Positions 5,168 through 56,649 of a stretch of DNA of 64,000 nt are shown one piece after another (position 1 is the first letter of the stretch; each line of letters opens with the position of its first letter). Source of the stretch: Thermodesulfobacteriota bacterium (GTDB lineage Bacteria > Desulfobacterota_D > UBA1144). The stretch is from assembly GCA_029246845.1 (NCBI GenBank), contig JAQWMJ010000006.1:1-64000 (forward strand), read 5' to 3'. The position numbers and the translations under genes were made by a program. The notes below the pieces were generated by a model. That model was not told where the DNA came from. It saw only the letters and a list, made by a program, of their open reading frames with translations, and made no database searches.

Positions 5168-5243
5168 TGGCTCCGGAGGAGGGATTTGAACCCCCGACAA
5201 AGTGATTAACAGTCACCTGCTCTGCCAGCTGAGCTACTCCGGA
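5168..5243 (-). tRNA. tRNA-Asn(GTT), CCA encoded
   Basis: TCCGGAGTAGCTCAGCTGGCAGAGCAGGTGACT-GTT-AATCACTTTGTCGGGGGTTCAAATCCCTCCTCCGGAGCCA cloverleaf. Confidence 0.95.
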
Positions 5244-20232: not shown

Positions 20233-20306
20233 GGGCCCATAGCTCAGTTGGTTAGAGCTCCCGGCTCATAACCGGGCGGTCACTGGTTCGAATCCAGTTG
20301 GGCCCA
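20233..20306 (+). tRNA. tRNA with CAT anticodon, probably tRNA-Ile2 (lysidine); CCA not encoded
   Basis: GGGCCCATAGCTCAGTTGGTTAGAGCTCCCGGCT-CAT-AACCGGG...TTCGAATCC..TGGGCCCA; paired G1-C72, so not initiator; resembles Ile2 sequences. Confidence 0.9.
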
Positions 20307-21448: not shown

Positions 21449-21808
21449 TAAGTGGGTTGAGTGATCGCTTGCATCTTTACTTTGTGAAGTGTAAGAGGAA
21501 AGTCCGAACTCCTAAAGGAATTGGTGCTGGGTAACCCCCAGGTGTCGAAAGGCAATGGAAAGTGCCACAGAAAATAACCGCCATTAATAAACACGTGATA
21601 TTAGTGGTAAGGGTGAAAAGGTGGTGTAAGAGACCACCGCAGTTTCTGGTGACAGAGGCTGGCAAGGCAAACCCCATCAGGAGAAAGACCATGTATAGAA
21701 GCTGGTATCCTTTCCAAATGCTTCGGGGTGGGTCGCTTGAGATGATAAGTAATTATTGTCCTAGATAGATGATCACATAAAACAGAATTCGGCTTACTAA
21801 CCCACTTA
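21449..21808 (+). ncRNA. rnpB: RNase P RNA (type A)
   Basis: GAGGAAAGTCC, GGAAAGTGCCACAGAAA, GGGTGAAAAGGTGGTGTAAGAGACCACC, ACAGAATTCGGCTTAC; P1 TAAGTGGGTT/AACCCACTTA. Confidence 0.96.
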
Positions 21809-22999
21809 CTTTATTTTAATTTTATAAAAATTCCTTTTACCTAGCTTAATTTTCCAAGGACTTTTAAAGGTAGGTAGAATCTCTAGTGAGGTAAATTTCT
21901 CGCCATTTATTTCAACTGCATTATCCTTTATAAGCCTTTTAAGTTCTGACCTTGAGAAGGATTCATTAGTAGCCTCAGAGAGTATATCTAAAAACTTTTT
22001 TCCTTTTATTTCAATTTCGATTTCATCTAAATCATCAGGGAAATCTTTTCTACTAAACTTACTTTCAAAATTATTTCTAGCTAACTCTGATAACTCTAGG
22101 CTATGATATTCTTCTACGACTTTAGAACCCAAAGCCTTCTTCCTCTCTAGCGGATTACCAATATCACCAAAAAACCCTCTATCGTTTGCAAAAAGAAGTT
22201 CAATATATCTGTCCATTAATTCATCTGATATAGACATAATTTTTCCAAAAATTTCATCATAGGAATCATTCAACCCAATATAATTATTTAAGCTTTTTGA
22301 CATCTTCATTTTACCGTCAAGGCCTTCAAGTATCGGGAGAAACACGCCCACTTGTTCAGGGACATTAAAAGCTTTTTGAATTTGTCTACCAAGTAAGATA
22401 TTAAATCTCTGATCTGTTCCACCTAGTTCTACATCGGAAGATAAGACAACTGAATCGTAGGCTTGAAGTATTGGATAAAGGAACTCTGTAACAGTTATAG
22501 CCTCCCCTGCTTTGTACCTTTTTTTAAAATCATCTCTCTCGAGCAATCTTGCAACATTCTCTAATGAGGACAGGTTAATAAGATCTTTCAAATCAAACTT
22601 ATTAAACCATTTAGAATTATAAAAAATTTGAACTTTTTCTTTCTCTAGGACCTTAAACATCTGGTCTTTATAGGTTGCCGCATTTACTTCAATCTCATCA
22701 GCGCTTAGGGGCTTCCTCGTCTTGTCTCTTCCAGTTGGATCACCAATCATAGCTGTAAAGTCACCGATTAAAAAATTAATTTCATGGCCTAAGTCTTGGA
22801 ATACCTTCAATTTCTTTAACAATAAAGAATGTCCTAGATGTAAATCGGAAGACGTAGGATCAAAGCCCGCCTTAATTTTAAGTGGCTCTTTTTTTTCAAA
22901 CGATTTAGATAATTTTTCTAAAAGTTCTGTTTCTGGAACTATGTCCACTACATTCTCAAGTATTATTTTAAGCTGCTTTTTTGGTTCAAGAAATTCCAT
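21806..22999 (-). CDS. tyrS: Tyrosine--tRNA ligase
   Basis: GFDPT..DLHLGH, GGTDQ, KMSKS, S4 domain. Confidence 0.97.
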   Translation of the reverse strand: MEFLEPKKQLKIILENVVDIVPETELLEKLSKSFEKKEPLKIKAGFDPTSSDLHLGHSLLLKKLKVFQDLGHEINFLIGDFTAMIGDPTGRDKTRKPLSADEIEVNAATYKDQMFKVLEKEKVQIFYNSKWFNKFDLKDLINLSSLENVARLLERDDFKKRYKAGEAITVTEFLYPILQAYDSVVLSSDVELGGTDQRFNILLGRQIQKAFNVPEQVGVFLPILEGLDGKMKMSKSLNNYIGLNDSYDEIFGKIMSISDELMDRYIELLFANDRGFFGDIGNPLERKKALGSKVVEEYHSLELSELARNNFESKFSRKDFPDDLDEIEIEIKGKKFLDILSEATNESFSRSELKRLIKDNAVEINGEKFTSLEILPTFKSPWKIKLGKRNFYKIKIK

Positions 23000-42576: not shown

Positions 42577-42648
42577 TGAGCACGAGTGGATTTGAACCAC
42601 CGACCTCTTGCATGTCAAGCAAGCGCTCTCCCCCTGAGCTACGCGCTC
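42577..42648 (-). tRNA. tRNA-Val(GAC); CCA not encoded
   Basis: GAGCGCGTAGCTCAGGGGGAGAGCGCTTGCTT-GAC-ATGCAAGAGGTCGGTGGTTCAAATCCACTCGTGCTCA. Confidence 0.93.
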
Positions 42649-53345: not shown

Positions 53346-54707
53346 TTATTTATCCCAAGGATGCTTCTTCTCGGGTTTTTGACTATATGGATTCTCTTTA
53401 TCTGGATGGAAATACTTAAAAGTATTAACATGTTGATCAGTATAAGAACCTGGAGGATAATATTTATCATAAAAATCCAAATCCATATTCTGAGCCTGGA
53501 AAACTAACCTCATATACATTGGGTCGACATAAGCTGGAAAAGATCCATAAGTGTCATGAATATAGTCAGCAACAGACTTAACAATCTCATTTGTTGTATC
53601 AGTAGGCCTTGGTGCTTTAACTAAGTGTTTGTCTGGCTCTTCATATGGAAAAGGTTTCTTGGAGTCCCAAGCGGCCCATTTATGTTCATCCATTTTATCA
53701 TATGCATCAGACATTGTTTTATAATATGGAGGGCAGTAGCCTTCAAAAATTCCATCTTTACCAACAGGTCTAGTCGGACCAGACTTTGGTTGTTCAAACC
53801 TAAAACCTAATCCTTTAAAAAGTTCAGGATTTGATCCTAGCGTGAACCTAGGTATGAGACCAGTAAATGTCCAACCACCTAACCCAAGAGCTTGAAGAGC
53901 TAGAGACATGTTCTGGCAAATAAATGCTTGTTCAACATTAAGACCAGTCAGTATTCTAACTTCAAGATCATATAATGACATTTTGACTTCTTCTTTTATT
54001 CTTCCAGAAGCAATCCATTTGTCTTGACCACATGAGCGATTATTTTTTTCATCCCAAATATTAAATGCATAAGTACTACTGCAATAAAGTGTCAATAAAT
54101 TTAAATACTCCTCAGTTATATCAGTAACAGGGATAAACGTTGTAGTACCAGCCTTGTTTGTATTCCATTGGTTAAAGTCAAAAAGACCAGGCATCTTGTC
54201 TGGCAAGTTGGCCCTACCGTCCTCAAGCTTAACAAGCCCTTCTCGATACAATTCTAACAACCTGTCAATTTTATCATTTACATTAAGTCTAAAAAAGACA
54301 TCAAGTTCTTTATCTTTAGGTAACATGTTTTTAACATCTACATAATAAAGACCGGAGTCATTAGTGAAAAAAAGCTCTGTACCGTGGTTATTACATGCAG
54401 AAGGCCATGTTCTGCCTGTCCATTGACATAATAAATCAATTCCATTCTCAGGTGGTAAATCTGCAAGGCATAGTCCGGTTAAACCGGTACCTGCCCAAAC
54501 CAACATAGCTTCTTGAAATTCAGTTAAAGGAACAGGGTCTATTTTTGACTTATACCCCAGAGAGCTATCTGAAGGGAGCTCCATTCCTAGACCAAACCTA
54601 CGAGACCTTCTATTAAAAATAGCTTCAAACAAAGGGTACTTTAAAGCAGCTTCGTAATTAACCTTTCCATTTCCCTTTCCATTTCCATTTTCATTTTTTT
54701 TTGTCAT
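53346..54707 (-). CDS. Uncharacterised protein with nitroreductase/SagB-like (FMN-binding) motifs
   Basis: AIFNRRSRRF, RTWPSA, EQAFICQNMSLALQALGLG. Confidence 0.55.
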   Translation of the reverse strand: MTKKNENGNGKGNGKVNYEAALKYPLFEAIFNRRSRRFGLGMELPSDSSLGYKSKIDPVPLTEFQEAMLVWAGTGLTGLCLADLPPENGIDLLCQWTGRTWPSACNNHGTELFFTNDSGLYYVDVKNMLPKDKELDVFFRLNVNDKIDRLLELYREGLVKLEDGRANLPDKMPGLFDFNQWNTNKAGTTTFIPVTDITEEYLNLLTLYCSSTYAFNIWDEKNNRSCGQDKWIASGRIKEEVKMSLYDLEVRILTGLNVEQAFICQNMSLALQALGLGGWTFTGLIPRFTLGSNPELFKGLGFRFEQPKSGPTRPVGKDGIFEGYCPPYYKTMSDAYDKMDEHKWAAWDSKKPFPYEEPDKHLVKAPRPTDTTNEIVKSVADYIHDTYGSFPAYVDPMYMRLVFQAQNMDLDFYDKYYPPGSYTDQHVNTFKYFHPDKENPYSQKPEKKHPWDK

Positions 54708-54771
54708 AGTTTTACCTCACTTTTGCAACTAAGTTTAGTATAAATTATATATATGAATTACAAAAAAGTAA

Positions 54772-55200
54772 TTAGGTTAGAGCTTGTTTTTTAATTTCTT
54801 CTTTCTCAAGTTCTTTTATAGCTAACTTTACAGTAGATATACCCAAAGTAGAGCATTTTGGCCTGGAAAGTGCTAGTTCCTCACCAATAATATCAGTAAT
54901 AATCTCAGGTCCCATAGATAAAATCTCTTCTTTTGATTTCCCTATTACAACTTCGGAAATAATTGATGTTCCAGCTTGACTAACAATACAACCTTCACCT
55001 TCAAATTTAAAATCTGTAATCACATTATCTTCAAACTGAAGACAAACAGTCACTATATCGCCACAACCTGGGTTTCCACCATTTTGTTTAATATCACAAC
55101 GATGCTTACTTTTATCTTCATCACTAAGAGAACCCGAGTTTCTCGGATTCTCATAATGATCTAAAATAAAGTCCATTAGTTCTTGTTTATCTTTTGTCAA
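54772..55200 (-). CDS. SufU/IscU-family (NifU_N) Fe-S scaffold or sulfur acceptor
   Basis: ILDHYENPRN, NPGCGD, GEGCIVS, RPKC (three conserved Cys). Confidence 0.88.
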   Translation of the reverse strand: MTKDKQELMDFILDHYENPRNSGSLSDEDKSKHRCDIKQNGGNPGCGDIVTVCLQFEDNVITDFKFEGEGCIVSQAGTSIISEVVIGKSKEEILSMGPEIITDIIGEELALSRPKCSTLGISTVKLAIKELEKEEIKKQALT

Positions 55201-55211
55201 ACCAAACCTCT

Positions 55212-56054
55212 CTATTTCTCAATAGGCGCTTGAACAAGATTTCCCCATTCAGTCCAGGATCCATCATAGTTTTTAACACTATTGTATCCAAGGAGATAAG
55301 TAAGAACAAACCAAGTGTGAGAAGACCTCTCACCTATTCTGCAATAAGCAATAACATCGTCTTCTGGCTTTAAACCAGCACCGTTTTGATATATTTCAAG
55401 CAACTCGTCTGCAGATTTAAATGTTCCATCTTCATTTGCTGCAGTTGCCCAAGGGACACTTTTAGCGTTAGGAATATGTCCACCTCTAAGTGCACCTTCT
55501 TGAGGATATGCTTCCATGTGAAGCATCTCACCGCTAAATTCTTTAGGTGATCGAACGTCAATCAAGGCCCCCAAAGAAGCGCTATGTTCTTTAACCTCTT
55601 CCCTAAATGCTCTAATGCCAAGATTAACATCAGCAACTTTATAATTTGTATTTTCTAAAGAAGGGACATCTTTGGAAAGCGGCTTCTTCTCTTCAATCCA
55701 CTTTTGTCTTCCCCCGTTCATTATAATACATTTCTCATGGCCATAAATTTTGAATGTCCAAAATGCGTAGCATGCCCACCAGTTGCTCTTATCTCCATAA
55801 AAAACAATCGTATCTTCGGGTGAAATTCCCTTTGAAGAAAGCAGTTTTTCAAAATTATCTTTGTCTATGTAGTCTCTTATAAGATTATCTTGAAGCTCTG
55901 TCTCCCAGTCTATTTTTATTGCTCCTTCAATATGACCTATGTCATATAAAAGAATATCTTCGTTAGATTCAAGTATCTTAATTCCTGGTTTATCCTTATT
56001 CTCTAAGACCCAGTCAGTTGAAACTAACAATTCCGGATTTTTATATTCTGCCAT
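55212..56054 (-). CDS. Tandem rhodanese sulfurtransferase (CysA/SseA type)
   Basis: [20 protein letters not shown], active-site [25 protein letters not shown]. Confidence 0.93.
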
Positions 56055-56066
56055 TTTACTCCTCCA

Positions 56067-56090
56067 TCTGGCCTTATTAATAAAGCCAGA
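56067..56090 (-). promoter_or_regulatory. Hairpin immediately 5' of the sulfurtransferase Shine-Dalgarno
   Basis: TCTGGCTTTA-TTAA-TAAGGCCAGA (10-bp stem including one G-U pair), followed by TGGAGGAGTAAAATG. Confidence 0.45.
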
Positions 56091-56125
56091 ATTAAATTAA
56101 ATTTTAAATTTATAACTAACCAATA

Positions 56126-56215
56126 CTACTTGTAGTTACAACAACATAAGTTTGAAAAGTTACAACAACATGTATCTACTTCACTAACAAGCGATACAAA
56201 CAATGTTTTAACCAT
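56126..56215 (-). CDS. Cysteine-rich leader peptide (29 aa) MVKTLFVSLVSEVDTCCCNFSNLCCCNYK
   Basis: AGGAG SD 6 nt before ATG; two TGT-TGT-TGT-AAC runs; TAG stop 71 nt before the sulfurtransferase ATG; below the ORF-track size cutoff. Confidence 0.75.
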   Translation of the reverse strand: MVKTLFVSLVSEVDTCCCNFSNLCCCNYK

Positions 56216-56249
56216 AACAAACTCCTAAACTTTTTGTAACTCAAAGAGG

Positions 56250-56271
56250 AAAGATACCGAACGGTATCTTC
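56250..56271 (-). terminator. Strong hairpin after the riboswitch (terminator or expression platform)
   Basis: GAAGATACC-GTTC-GGTATCTTT followed by CCTCTTTG (imperfect U tail). Confidence 0.5.
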
Positions 56272-56272
56272 A

Positions 56273-56324
56273 CCCTATTTAGCAATTATTTAATGTCGCT
56301 GCAATTAGAGTTAAATGACGACAT
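56273..56324 (-). promoter_or_regulatory. SAM-II-like riboswitch aptamer (H-type pseudoknot)
   Basis: AUGUCGUC-AUUUAA-CUCUA-AUUGC-AGCGACAU-UAAAUAAUU-GCUAAA-UAGGG: P1 AUGUCG/CGACAU, conserved UUU, UUGC and GCUAAA, pseudoknot CUCUA/UAGGG; 52 nt; upstream of sulfur genes. Confidence 0.75.
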
Positions 56325-56328
56325 ATAG

Positions 56329-56358
56329 ATTATAGCACTGAAATAAAATAAAAATCAA
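56329..56358 (-). promoter_or_regulatory. Extended -10 promoter driving the riboswitch leader
   Basis: TTGATT-18 nt-TATAAT with TGc extension; predicted +1 at about 56322-56324, the 5' end of the aptamer. Confidence 0.65.
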
Positions 56359-56400
56359 TATTATATTTAAATAAGTAATTCATTAGGTTATTATTTTTAC

Positions 56401-56649
56401 ATGAGTGAAGTTGAAGAAAAAACAGTCGATCCTGAATCTAAGGATATTTCGGCGTCTAAAGAAGAGGCTGATGTTCAAGCGACTCCAGAAGAACTAGAGG
56501 AAGAAGTGCACGTAGTTCCACCTTACCCTGAAAGAGTTCCTAACGCTGAGAAAGGTGCCGATCACGCACACGCTTATGTGATGTTAAAAATATTGTTTCT
56601 CTTGGTAGTTTTTTCTTTAGTAATAGCAAAATTCACCTCACCTTTTTAG
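56401..56649 (+). CDS. Small hypothetical protein with acidic N-terminus and single C-terminal TM helix
   Basis: 82-aa ORF with protein-like composition; TATTAT -10 box 6 nt upstream. Confidence 0.6.
   Translation: MSEVEEKTVDPESKDISASKEEADVQATPEELEEEVHVVPPYPERVPNAEKGADHAHAYVMLKILFLLVVFSLVIAKFTSPF

Follow-up and report, generated by a model that had tools for sequence, protein, structure and literature searches.

Layout of the leader and its operon

The stretch of DNA analysed here, 64,000 nt of contig JAQWMJ010000006.1 (the window, whose numbering is used throughout), comes from an assembly of 1.04 Mb with a G+C content of 32.6%. On the minus strand of the window, a three-gene operon headed by a two-domain rhodanese is preceded by a leader RNA in which a candidate S-adenosylmethionine (SAM) riboswitch is followed by a short, cysteine-rich upstream open reading frame (uORF). 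The original prediction, made from the letters of the sequence, had listed these leader elements and the order of the genes behind them, and all were recovered at the positions given there. The leader and operon comprise the following features.

56329..56358, minus strand: promoter-like site, TTGATT-18 nt-TATAAT with an extended -10 TG
56272..56322, minus strand: SAM-II-class aptamer, placed by an RF00521 match and strand-by-strand mapping
56245..56276, minus strand: hairpin Hrs, upper stem 56250-56271 and base AGGG (56273-56276) with CUCU (56245-56248)
56233..56253, minus strand: segment X, CUUUCCUCUUUGAGUUACAAA, 21 nt, combining an anti-Shine-Dalgarno UUCCUCU and element A, GAGUUACAA
56126..56226, minus strand: uORF of 29 codons with its Shine-Dalgarno (SD) sequence; AGGAG 56222-56226, AUG 56213-56215, UAG 56126-56128
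56109..56146, minus strand: hairpin H2, UGUAACUA (last Cys, Asn and Tyr codons) with UAGUUAUA just past the stop codon
56051..56108, minus strand: main gene start region; conserved AU-rich tract 56090-56108, hairpin H3 56067-56090, SD GGAGG 56061-56065, AUG 56052-56054
53346..56054, minus strand: operon of rhodanese, SufU/IscU-like protein and 453-aa protein
55212-56054, minus strand: two-domain rhodanese (Pfam PF00581, E 8e-32)
54772-55200, minus strand: NifU_N/SufU-like protein (PF01592, E 7e-23, 81.6 bits with a cut-off of 22)
53346-54707, minus strand: conserved 453-aa protein of no named family

The proposed extended -10 promoter agrees with the consensus at 10/12 positions and carries the expected TG ahead of its -10 element. 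Related leaders have TATAAT, TATACT or TACAAT at an equal distance ahead of GUCGUC, and transcription likely starts near G56322. The promoter scan as a whole was not above chance, returning 15 promoter-like sites against 13.6 +/- 3.5 in shuffled sequences. Evidence from RNA came from four marine RNA libraries in the form of assembled contigs, from which transcript ends, transcript levels and attenuated species cannot be read. Contigs spanning 55071-56263 (X1), 55836-56322 (X7) and 55917-56296 (X8) bridge the leader and the genes, and assembled sequence joins the aptamer, the uORF and the rhodanese in one contig. Four X7 contigs terminate at 56322, 7 nt past TATAAT, which is a weak hint of the start, because contigs cannot show RNA ends. 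Contig depth was zero across 56352-56450 in 4/4 runs, an uncovered stretch being no evidence by itself. A promoter located downstream of the uORF had been named in advance as an observation that would speak against joint control; we saw no sign of a promoter serving the rhodanese alone, and an additional internal one may exist.

A SAM-II-class aptamer and a poly-cysteine reading frame

The aptamer was matched by RF00521 (SAM_alpha) at 56258-56332 in a cmscan search, with 35.1 bits and E 4.1e-6 at a gathering score of 36, and RF01726 gave 24.2 bits in the same leader with a gathering score of 44. A scan of the window against Rfam at gathering thresholds accordingly reported no leader element. 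Since the E values of 4e-6 in this search and 1.3e-6 for the same copy on the whole genome are far from chance, the sub-threshold score represents a near miss rather than a mismatch. In SAM-II and SAM-V aptamers, as laid out in the available text of Huang & Lilley 2018 (PMC6061858), the strands follow the order P1, U-rich third strand, linker, P2 strand, P1', L3, tail GC(U)AA and, 3' of it, an extension whose pairing with the linker gives P2a. The leader reproduces this order with P1 GUCGU/GCGAC, third strand AUUU, linker AACUCUA, P2 UUGC with the tail GC(U)AA, and AGGGU as the 3' extension, the partner of the linker in P2a. A first assignment of the pseudoknot (loop UUUAAC with GCUAAA) was dropped in favour of this arrangement.

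The pairings were scored on an alignment (A4) of 35 distinct leaders. All four pairs of the P2 duplex between UUGC and GC(U)AA, with one U bulged, are invariant in 35/35 leaders, and AUUU directly follows P1 in 35/35. The core of P1 is paired in 100% and the whole helix in 92%. In P2a, three core pairs (CUC with GAG or GGG) are paired in 100% and the flanking pairs in 86% and 26%; covariation is impossible to show here because the columns do not vary. The pseudoknot topology, the triplex strand and P2a of the SAM-II class are thus all present, and the score falls short. The original reading of a SAM-II-like aptamer therefore appears sound in P1, P2 with its bulged U, the U-rich strand and P2a, and these copies would extend the range of SAM-II to Dadabacteria in a form below the Rfam threshold.

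The genome holds four RF00521 copies, scoring 35.1, 30.5, 27.3 and 23.5 bits. Their four paralogous leaders share a common order of promoter, near-identical aptamer, variable hairpin, a conserved CUUUCCUCUU(U)GAGUUACA and a Shine-Dalgarno sequence. Three of the four then proceed into a small reading frame that ends in Cys codons: MVKTLFVSLVSEVDTCCCNFSNLCCCNYK ahead of the rhodanese, MLFISKDYSCFSLLNCCCCSFK upstream of an SBP56 (methanethiol-oxidase family) gene, and MVNLNILLFLKGKDLCSPNFTNSCCCS upstream of sulfite reductase-cysD-cysN-cysP-cysH. The fourth runs straight into ThrC-family and ThiS-family genes. The three loci outside the window are listed below.

L046, G000:C12:7925-9566: ThrC-family gene with an N-terminal Cys-rich stretch, then a ThiS/MoaD-family sulfur carrier; no uORF
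L047, G000:C50:2795-5110: SBP56 gene (PF05694, 602 bits); riboswitch and poly-Cys leader
L048, G000:C39:25798-31568: sulfite reductase hemoprotein (sir), cysD, cysN, a PHO4-family CysP-like permease and cysH; riboswitch and poly-Cys leader

The ThrC-like/ThiS pair may be a MetM/MetO-type homocysteine synthase (Hasebe 2024, as given in Table 2 of PMC13759103) rather than a threonine synthase. We consider it very unlikely that the aptamer only resembles SAM-II and has a different ligand or no ligand at all, leaving the Cys uORF as the main control. All matches do lie under the Rfam gathering score, and weak RF00521 matches (E <= 1) occur in 8/14 control genomes; yet the whole-genome E value is 1.3e-6, the core positions of Huang & Lilley (UUGC, the GC-U-AA tail and the U-rich strand) are present and invariant, and each of the four target operons serves sulfur or methionine metabolism. 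Moreover, the 24-nt core of the aptamer recurs in metagenome leaders with a second SAM-II/SAM-V-like aptamer, a Pelagibacter-type arrangement.

The uORF of the window was found as described, with AGGAG at 56222-56226, the frame at 56126-56215, and two Cys runs, at 56162-56170 and 56138-56146, the peptide ending in CCCNYK. It begins about 107 nt into the predicted transcript. A census of the genome counted 10,869 ATG reading frames of 8-60 codons, 16 of which contain CCC; three of these 16 are the first reading frames behind 3/4 SAM-II-like aptamers (hypergeometric P for 3/3, 2.6e-9). Of the other 13, the three inspected (C8, C27 and C18) lie, by eye, within longer coding sequence and lack an SD, and were set aside.

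We compared the uORFs of 33 distinct leaders, which encode 31 distinct peptides. GGAG or GAGG stands 6-7 nt ahead of the AUG in 33/33, and the frames fall into seven length classes of 21-33 codons, in frame throughout. Each contains 4-11 Cys codons, compared with 0.97% Cys codons genome-wide, and 33/33 end in CCC followed by 0-3 residues, with a terminal run of at least three Cys. From one operon class to another, the N-terminal sequences are unrelated. Being short, equipped with its own start signals and bearing a cluster of regulatory codons, the uORF has the make-up of an attenuator, and it looks translated and regulatory.

The same codons appear to be constrained as RNA. The residue after the Cys run is Asn, Ser or Gly (AAC, AGC or GGC), and because these A-to-G changes keep pairing with U, a constraint on the RNA is indicated there. 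Of the Cys codons in the uORFs of the 33 leaders, 90% are UGU (174/193, the remaining 19/193 being UGC), as against 67% in the long reading frames of the genome, an excess that fits a base-pairing constraint added to the coding role. In addition, CAAACUU (56148-56154), just ahead of the terminal Cys run, can pair with the SD spacer GAGUUUG of its own uORF; this pairing of the SD with the pre-Cys stretch is kept in 97% across leaders, with one compensatory change.

To follow the leader in relatives, a covariance model (R1) was built from the four leaders of the genome. R1 matched 18/18 other genomes of the family and 0/82 genomes from other families of the class, with up to four copies per genome in genera g1 and g6 and one in g2-g5. 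The 38 leaders of the conservation table, including the four of this genome, divide by downstream gene as follows.

ThrC-like gene downstream: 19 leaders, poly-Cys uORF in 0
sir operon downstream: 7 leaders, poly-Cys uORF in 7
Rhodanese downstream: 7 leaders, poly-Cys uORF in 7
SBP56 downstream: 5 leaders, poly-Cys uORF in 4

A poly-Cys uORF is therefore present in 18/19 non-thrC leaders versus 0/19 thrC leaders. The sole exception, the SBP56 leader L045, has lost the aptamer tail and 3' half, Hrs and X, and its Cys run now reads CFCG; the hairpin ahead of the SD is retained. This decayed form recurs in one metagenome contig (L172). A wider occurrence of the tandem, beyond g1 and g6, was considered and rejected: a leader lies upstream of the 453-aa gene at only 5/80 Dadabacteria loci, and a comparable poly-Cys uORF was found at 0/7 loci in the sir upstream regions of g2-g5. 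Judged from this distribution, the thrC-type riboswitch, present in 18/18 family genomes, is the ancestral copy. The comparison therefore indicates that the thrC-type riboswitch spread within this lineage, with a uORF added to it, and so came to stand before three operons of sulfur acquisition.

Metagenome contigs were also scanned for exact matches to the aptamer core, which gave 84 stretches; 80 loci from these were read. A poly-Cys uORF is present at 31/80, ahead of rhodanese (14), sir (9), SBP56 (7) or a contig end (1). The others are thrC-type (27), loci with a terminator and a Lys-rich reading frame (14), loci with a second aptamer (3) and odd or short cases (5). The aptamer and the uORF, in that order, thus hold across three operons, two genera and 31 metagenome contigs, and the outcome in which only one of the two would be conserved, raised beforehand as a point against joint control, is not what we see.

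With the conservation data in hand, it is improbable that the riboswitch regulates alone, the small reading frame being either a Cys-rich peptide (a metal or sulfur carrier) or untranslated RNA whose UGU repeats serve pairing only. The preference for UGU (174/193, or 90%, versus 67% in long reading frames) does speak for a constraint at the RNA level, and the Cys region can pair both with element A and with element C, its partner in H2. Set against this, SD, AUG, frame and stop are kept in 33/33 leaders over seven length classes, and UGC also occurs within the runs (19/193). The N-terminal two thirds are unconserved between operon classes, unlike a functional peptide, and the uORF is tied to sulfur-acquisition operons and absent from 19 thrC leaders.

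Comparative sequence evidence thus points strongly to a two-input leader RNA in which a SAM-II-class riboswitch and a translated poly-Cys uORF jointly set the output of the operon. We are similarly confident that three sulfur operons (rhodanese-SufU-453aa, sulfate assimilation and SBP56) are governed by such a leader, which probably reads the supply of the methionine branch and of cysteine together ahead of sulfur-acquisition genes. Of the dual-sensor interpretation offered originally, the anatomy stands, with a SAM-II-class aptamer and a poly-Cys frame on one leader before sulfur genes; its on/off logic is one of the options taken up below.

Alternative pairings and a possible switching mechanism

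The strong hairpin noted between the aptamer and the uORF lies exactly at 56250-56271, as the upper stem of Hrs. The base of Hrs shares the four bases AGGG with P2a, and Hrs and P2a therefore compete. Across the 35 leaders, 7/9 pairs of the upper stem vary on both sides, and pairing at the base holds in at least 91%. A role for Hrs as a SAM-controlled intrinsic terminator was rejected: it has no U run, it was not flagged by the terminator scan, and RNA-library contigs read through it. We regard it instead as a covarying arm of the switch. A genuine stem and U run are found at the position of Hrs in the terminator-type metagenome relatives.

Segment X, which follows, is near-invariant in the 35 leaders. 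Its element A complements the aptamer linker UAACUC or, alternatively, the Cys-Asn codons of the uORF. The pairing of the linker with GAGUUA is possible in 35/35 leaders, the variants GGGUUA and GAGUUG keeping it through G-U pairs, and the pairing of A with the Cys-Asn codons (A:B) is complete (100%) in 10/10. In the terminator-type metagenome relatives, a different post-hairpin element, CGGGUUGA, complements the linker in 17/19. In the rhodanese and SBP56 leaders, X forms its best predicted duplexes with the start region of the main gene, GGAGGAAU (-9 to -14 kcal/mol), and with the Cys-Asn codons, UUGUAACU (-8.5 to -11.6); for the thrC leaders, the top-ranked partner was the start region of thrC.

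Two further hairpins lie downstream. The strands of H2 flank the end of the uORF, which places the stop codon in its loop. H2 is predicted in every rhodanese and SBP56 leader; in L003 and L042 it takes a shifted compensatory form, CUUCAA:UUGAAG, and in the sir leaders UUGCU:AGCAA replaces UUGUU:AACAA. The Cys-Asn codons can accordingly pair with A (10/10) or with element C (in H2), an effect on the main SD being seen in models only, and partially. H3, the second hairpin of the original description, is present at 56067-56090 and abuts the GGAGG of the main gene. It covaries among leaders, with stems CUGGC/GCCAG, CUGAC/GUCAG, CUAG/CUAG and UUGAC/GUCAA. For the main SD, the best partners are X and the U-rich tract, the latter pairing being predicted in several leaders. 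No stem with a U run was found between the uORF and the main gene, either by reading the sequence or by the terminator scan; any attenuation there would therefore be translational or act through Rho.

On these pairings we propose, tentatively, a convergent mechanism. In the absence of SAM, AGGG would pair with CUCU and close the base of Hrs, the linker UAACUC would hold GAGUUA, and the whole 21-nt X, anti-SD and element A alike, would be locked away, leaving the downstream start sites open. Binding of SAM would stabilize the P2 triplex and P2a (linker CUCU with AGGG), removing both partners of X and freeing it; in the longer leader RNA, SAM would release CUUUCCUCUU-GAGUUACAAA. Free X could then zip onto the terminal Cys-Asn codons of the uORF (AGUUACAA with UUGUAACU), and its UUCCUCU would pair with the main SD GGAGGA and shut the main gene. 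When Cys-tRNA is short, a ribosome stalled on the Cys run would cover the Cys-Asn codons, so that the zipper cannot nucleate and the operon stays on even at high SAM. The predicted logic is repression only when SAM and cysteine are both plentiful. That ligand and ribosome compete for the same helix, SAM freeing A and Cys-tRNA supply freeing its Cys-Asn partner so that the anti-SD closes the main start once both are free, is the more doubtful core of this proposal.

We examined the proposal by constraint folding of 16 uORF leaders, masking the aptamer as a mimic of the SAM-bound state and masking X as a mimic of the SAM-free state. In the SAM-bound mimic, the mean probability that the main SD is unpaired was 0.18 and the pairing of SD with X was 0.60. 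In the SAM-free mimic the main SD was unpaired with a mean probability of 0.40, above the SAM-bound value in 13/16 leaders. With a stalled ribosome included, the SAM-bound mimic gave 0.29, with a rise in 11/16 leaders that was clearest for the rhodanese class; the leader of the window went from 0.20 to 0.57. Whole-leader minimum-energy folds, in which long-range AU pairs predominated, were discarded as uninformative. An anti-sequestor made by element C and the AU-rich tract upon ribosome stalling found no support in local folds, and a SAM-dependent hiding of the start site of the first cistron found none in the constraint folds.

Several observations weigh against this account and the two-input leader on which it builds. 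The Rfam gathering score of 36 bits is reached by no leader; the relatives score 30.6-35.6 bits, with E <= 0.01 at 10/20 loci. The counts overstate independence, since the sequences come from close relatives and the three leaders with a uORF are paralogues of one another. Linker:A shows one-sided changes only, and compensatory pairs are absent for linker:A, P2a, A:B and X:SD, which are invariant or change on one side. These alternative pairings lack compensatory changes because their columns hardly vary, and a metagenome scan for further diversity gave zero new compensatory changes for A:B. In the folding models, shuffling X leaves a pairing of 0.30 with the main SD, and only 6/16 leaders exceed all 8 of their own shuffles. 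Neither the SAM-free mimic (7/16) nor local folding shows a consistent effect of a stalled ribosome, and stalling does not relieve X:SD pairing in the sir leaders. At the start of the first cistron (thrC or uORF), SAM has no effect in the models (0.45 versus 0.43-0.44; higher in 8/18 and 7/16).

The folding models thus support the proposed mechanism only in part. The direction of the switch, off with SAM, would follow from known SAM riboswitches and from the functions of the genes rather than from these models. As for the logic, the modelling slightly favours a leader that is off only when both signals are plentiful over the scheme first put forward, on only when both are scarce. Taking layout and mechanism together, we regard the account given here as the best explanation, with the chances of its being right as a whole about evenly balanced.

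An arrangement of independent sensors in series, which we hold possible and rather unlikely, would return to that earlier logic, with the operon on only at low SAM and low cysteine. Here the riboswitch would gate translation of the uORF, and an untranslated leader would be cut short by Rho or RNases. With ample Cys-tRNA the ribosome would leave, H2 would re-form, and the U-rich tract and H3 would hide the main SD, which stalling would open. The genome encodes Rho (672 bits, cut-off 509), and the riboswitch stands directly ahead of the uORF start region, much as in the Mbox-uORF-Rho system of M. tuberculosis described in the available text of PMC12810186. The final Cys codons and the stop codon do lie within H2, of which compensatory variants exist; the main SD is a possible partner for H3 with the U-rich tract; and stalled ribosomes are described as opening a hidden SD in mycobacteria in the accessible part of Canestrari et al. 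(bioRxiv 10.1101/834739). Against series control, masking the Cys run produces no consistent rise in access to the main SD (in local folds, and in 7/16 constraint folds), the spacer is very C-poor, unlike a Rho loading site, and the folds show no SAM-dependent change at the uORF start region. Series control also gives no reason for X to complement both the Cys-Asn codons and the main SD.

Related systems and further observations

Cells must balance the flow of sulfur between cysteine and methionine/SAM. To our knowledge, bacteria known to do so rely on protein regulators or on a single RNA sensor per operon. The SAM-II riboswitch was reportedly introduced by Corbino in 2005, and Kipkorir et al. 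in 2024 are said to have found B12 switches that control a uORF in M. tuberculosis.

The leader resembles SAM-II riboswitches, as presented in the available text of PMC11508383, in its H-type pseudoknot, P1, P2 of UUGC with GC(U)AA, U-rich third strand and P2a, and in serving sulfur/methionine genes in a marine bacterium. It differs in its Dadabacterium host, its sub-cut-off score and a post-aptamer hairpin without a U run. In addition, the next element in 3/4 leaders here is a poly-Cys uORF, and neither a gene nor a SAM-V aptamer. Action of SAM-II at a distance is described for S. meliloti metA in the portion of the literature available to us.

For the uORF, the closest likeness is to the mycobacterial poly-Cys short reading frames Ms5788A/Rv0815A, which, according to the accessible part of bioRxiv 10.1101/834739, attenuate sulfur operons including that of the sulfurtransferase cysA2. 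Both are short frames that end in a Cys run ahead of a thiosulfate sulfurtransferase (rhodanese) operon, with proposed ribosome stalling, and in both cases several sulfur operons per genome have each their own copy. As far as that text describes them, the mycobacterial frames are leaderless, have no riboswitch and pair their Cys tract directly with the downstream SD. The uORF here instead has an SD and lies within the 5' untranslated region, downstream of a riboswitch and some 107 nt from the predicted transcript start; the partners of its Cys-Asn codons are A or C and not the main SD, the UGU repeats being non-complementary to GGAGG.

Leaders that receive two signals are also known. Salmonella mgtA combines a Mg2+ riboswitch with the proline-codon uORF mgtL in one leader (Park et al. 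2010, via the available text of PMC6460261); its signals are Mg2+ and proline/EF-P and its output is transcription attenuation, whereas the signals proposed here are SAM and Cys-tRNA and no terminator is present. In the M. tuberculosis pe20 Mbox, a riboswitch likewise acts on an upstream small reading frame and not on the main gene (D'Halluin et al. 2026, PMC12810186); in the available text of that report the uORF is not presented as an amino-acid sensor, and Rho-dependent termination is demonstrated. The uORFC-8-2 motif of cysS in Rhodobacterales (Brewer et al. 2021, PMC8632094) shares a conserved uORF with tandem Cys codons within a stem; as given in the accessible text, the motif has two of these codons and an intrinsic terminator, lacks a riboswitch and regulates cysS. 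Our literature search, whose coverage left out most subscription journals, found no paper on a SAM riboswitch combined with a Cys leader peptide or on any Dadabacteria riboswitch. What appears to be new is thus the joining of known kinds, a SAM-II-class riboswitch with a Cys leader peptide.

In this way, a single leader RNA of a streamlined ocean bacterium appears to be wired to both end products. The methionine-branch operon (ThrC-like and ThiS-like genes), which keeps the riboswitch alone, provides a built-in control for such a compact two-input gate. If true, this would amount to multivalent end-product repression by two sulfur amino-acid branches through one protein-free RNA, with the module copied to three operons within a 1-Mb genome. 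The finding is of relevance to RNA regulation and to marine sulfur metabolism, and it suggests that riboswitches in tandem with codon-sensing uORFs could be a general design, so far overlooked.

The proteins of the operon agree in part with the identities first assigned to them. The sulfurtransferase stands, as a two-domain rhodanese (PF00581). The second gene falls below the family cut-off for SufU (TIGR01994, 80.1 bits against 92.5), and the nitroreductase-like call for the third gene survives as a weak lead only. The 453-aa protein has no match in Pfam, NCBIfam or PDB sequences; its Atlas cluster carries PF00881 in 16% of members. Foldseek returned nothing at E <= 0.001 for its structure model, the top match being 3hoi (a flavin mononucleotide nitroreductase; E 0.11, TM 0.16/0.32), and the fold call was abandoned as the prediction was too uncertain (pLDDT 54). 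Its relatives, at 69-97% identity, are in Candidatus Dadabacteria records (UBA1144, TMED58 and others), and a second paralogue at 52-56% is also found; many Cys, His, Trp and Gly positions are invariant.

The terminator group of metagenome loci carries the 24-nt core of the aptamer, a GC-rich stem with a U run, and then a Lys-rich reading frame of 40-60 codons with the shared motif L-x-L-D-T-x-P-E. The genes in these marine contigs are not obvious sulfur genes. In L161, L192 and L195, a second SAM-II/SAM-V-like aptamer is found instead. The loci of the terminator group are as follows.

L152, L153, L166, L181, L182, L185, L186, L188, L190, L193, L197, L208, L211, L231

Directly upstream of the promoter, a divergent reading frame of 82 codons begins (56401-56649, plus strand), whose product would be acidic in its N-terminal half and hydrophobic over a C-terminal stretch. 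Pfam gave no match to it, and its RNA-contig cover was nil in the four runs, which is uninformative by itself. The Rfam matches above gathering score in the window are limited to an RNase P RNA and three tRNA genes.

21449-21812, plus strand: RNase P RNA class A (284.7 bits)
20233-20306, plus strand: tRNA gene
42577-42648, minus strand: tRNA gene
5171-5243, minus strand: tRNA gene

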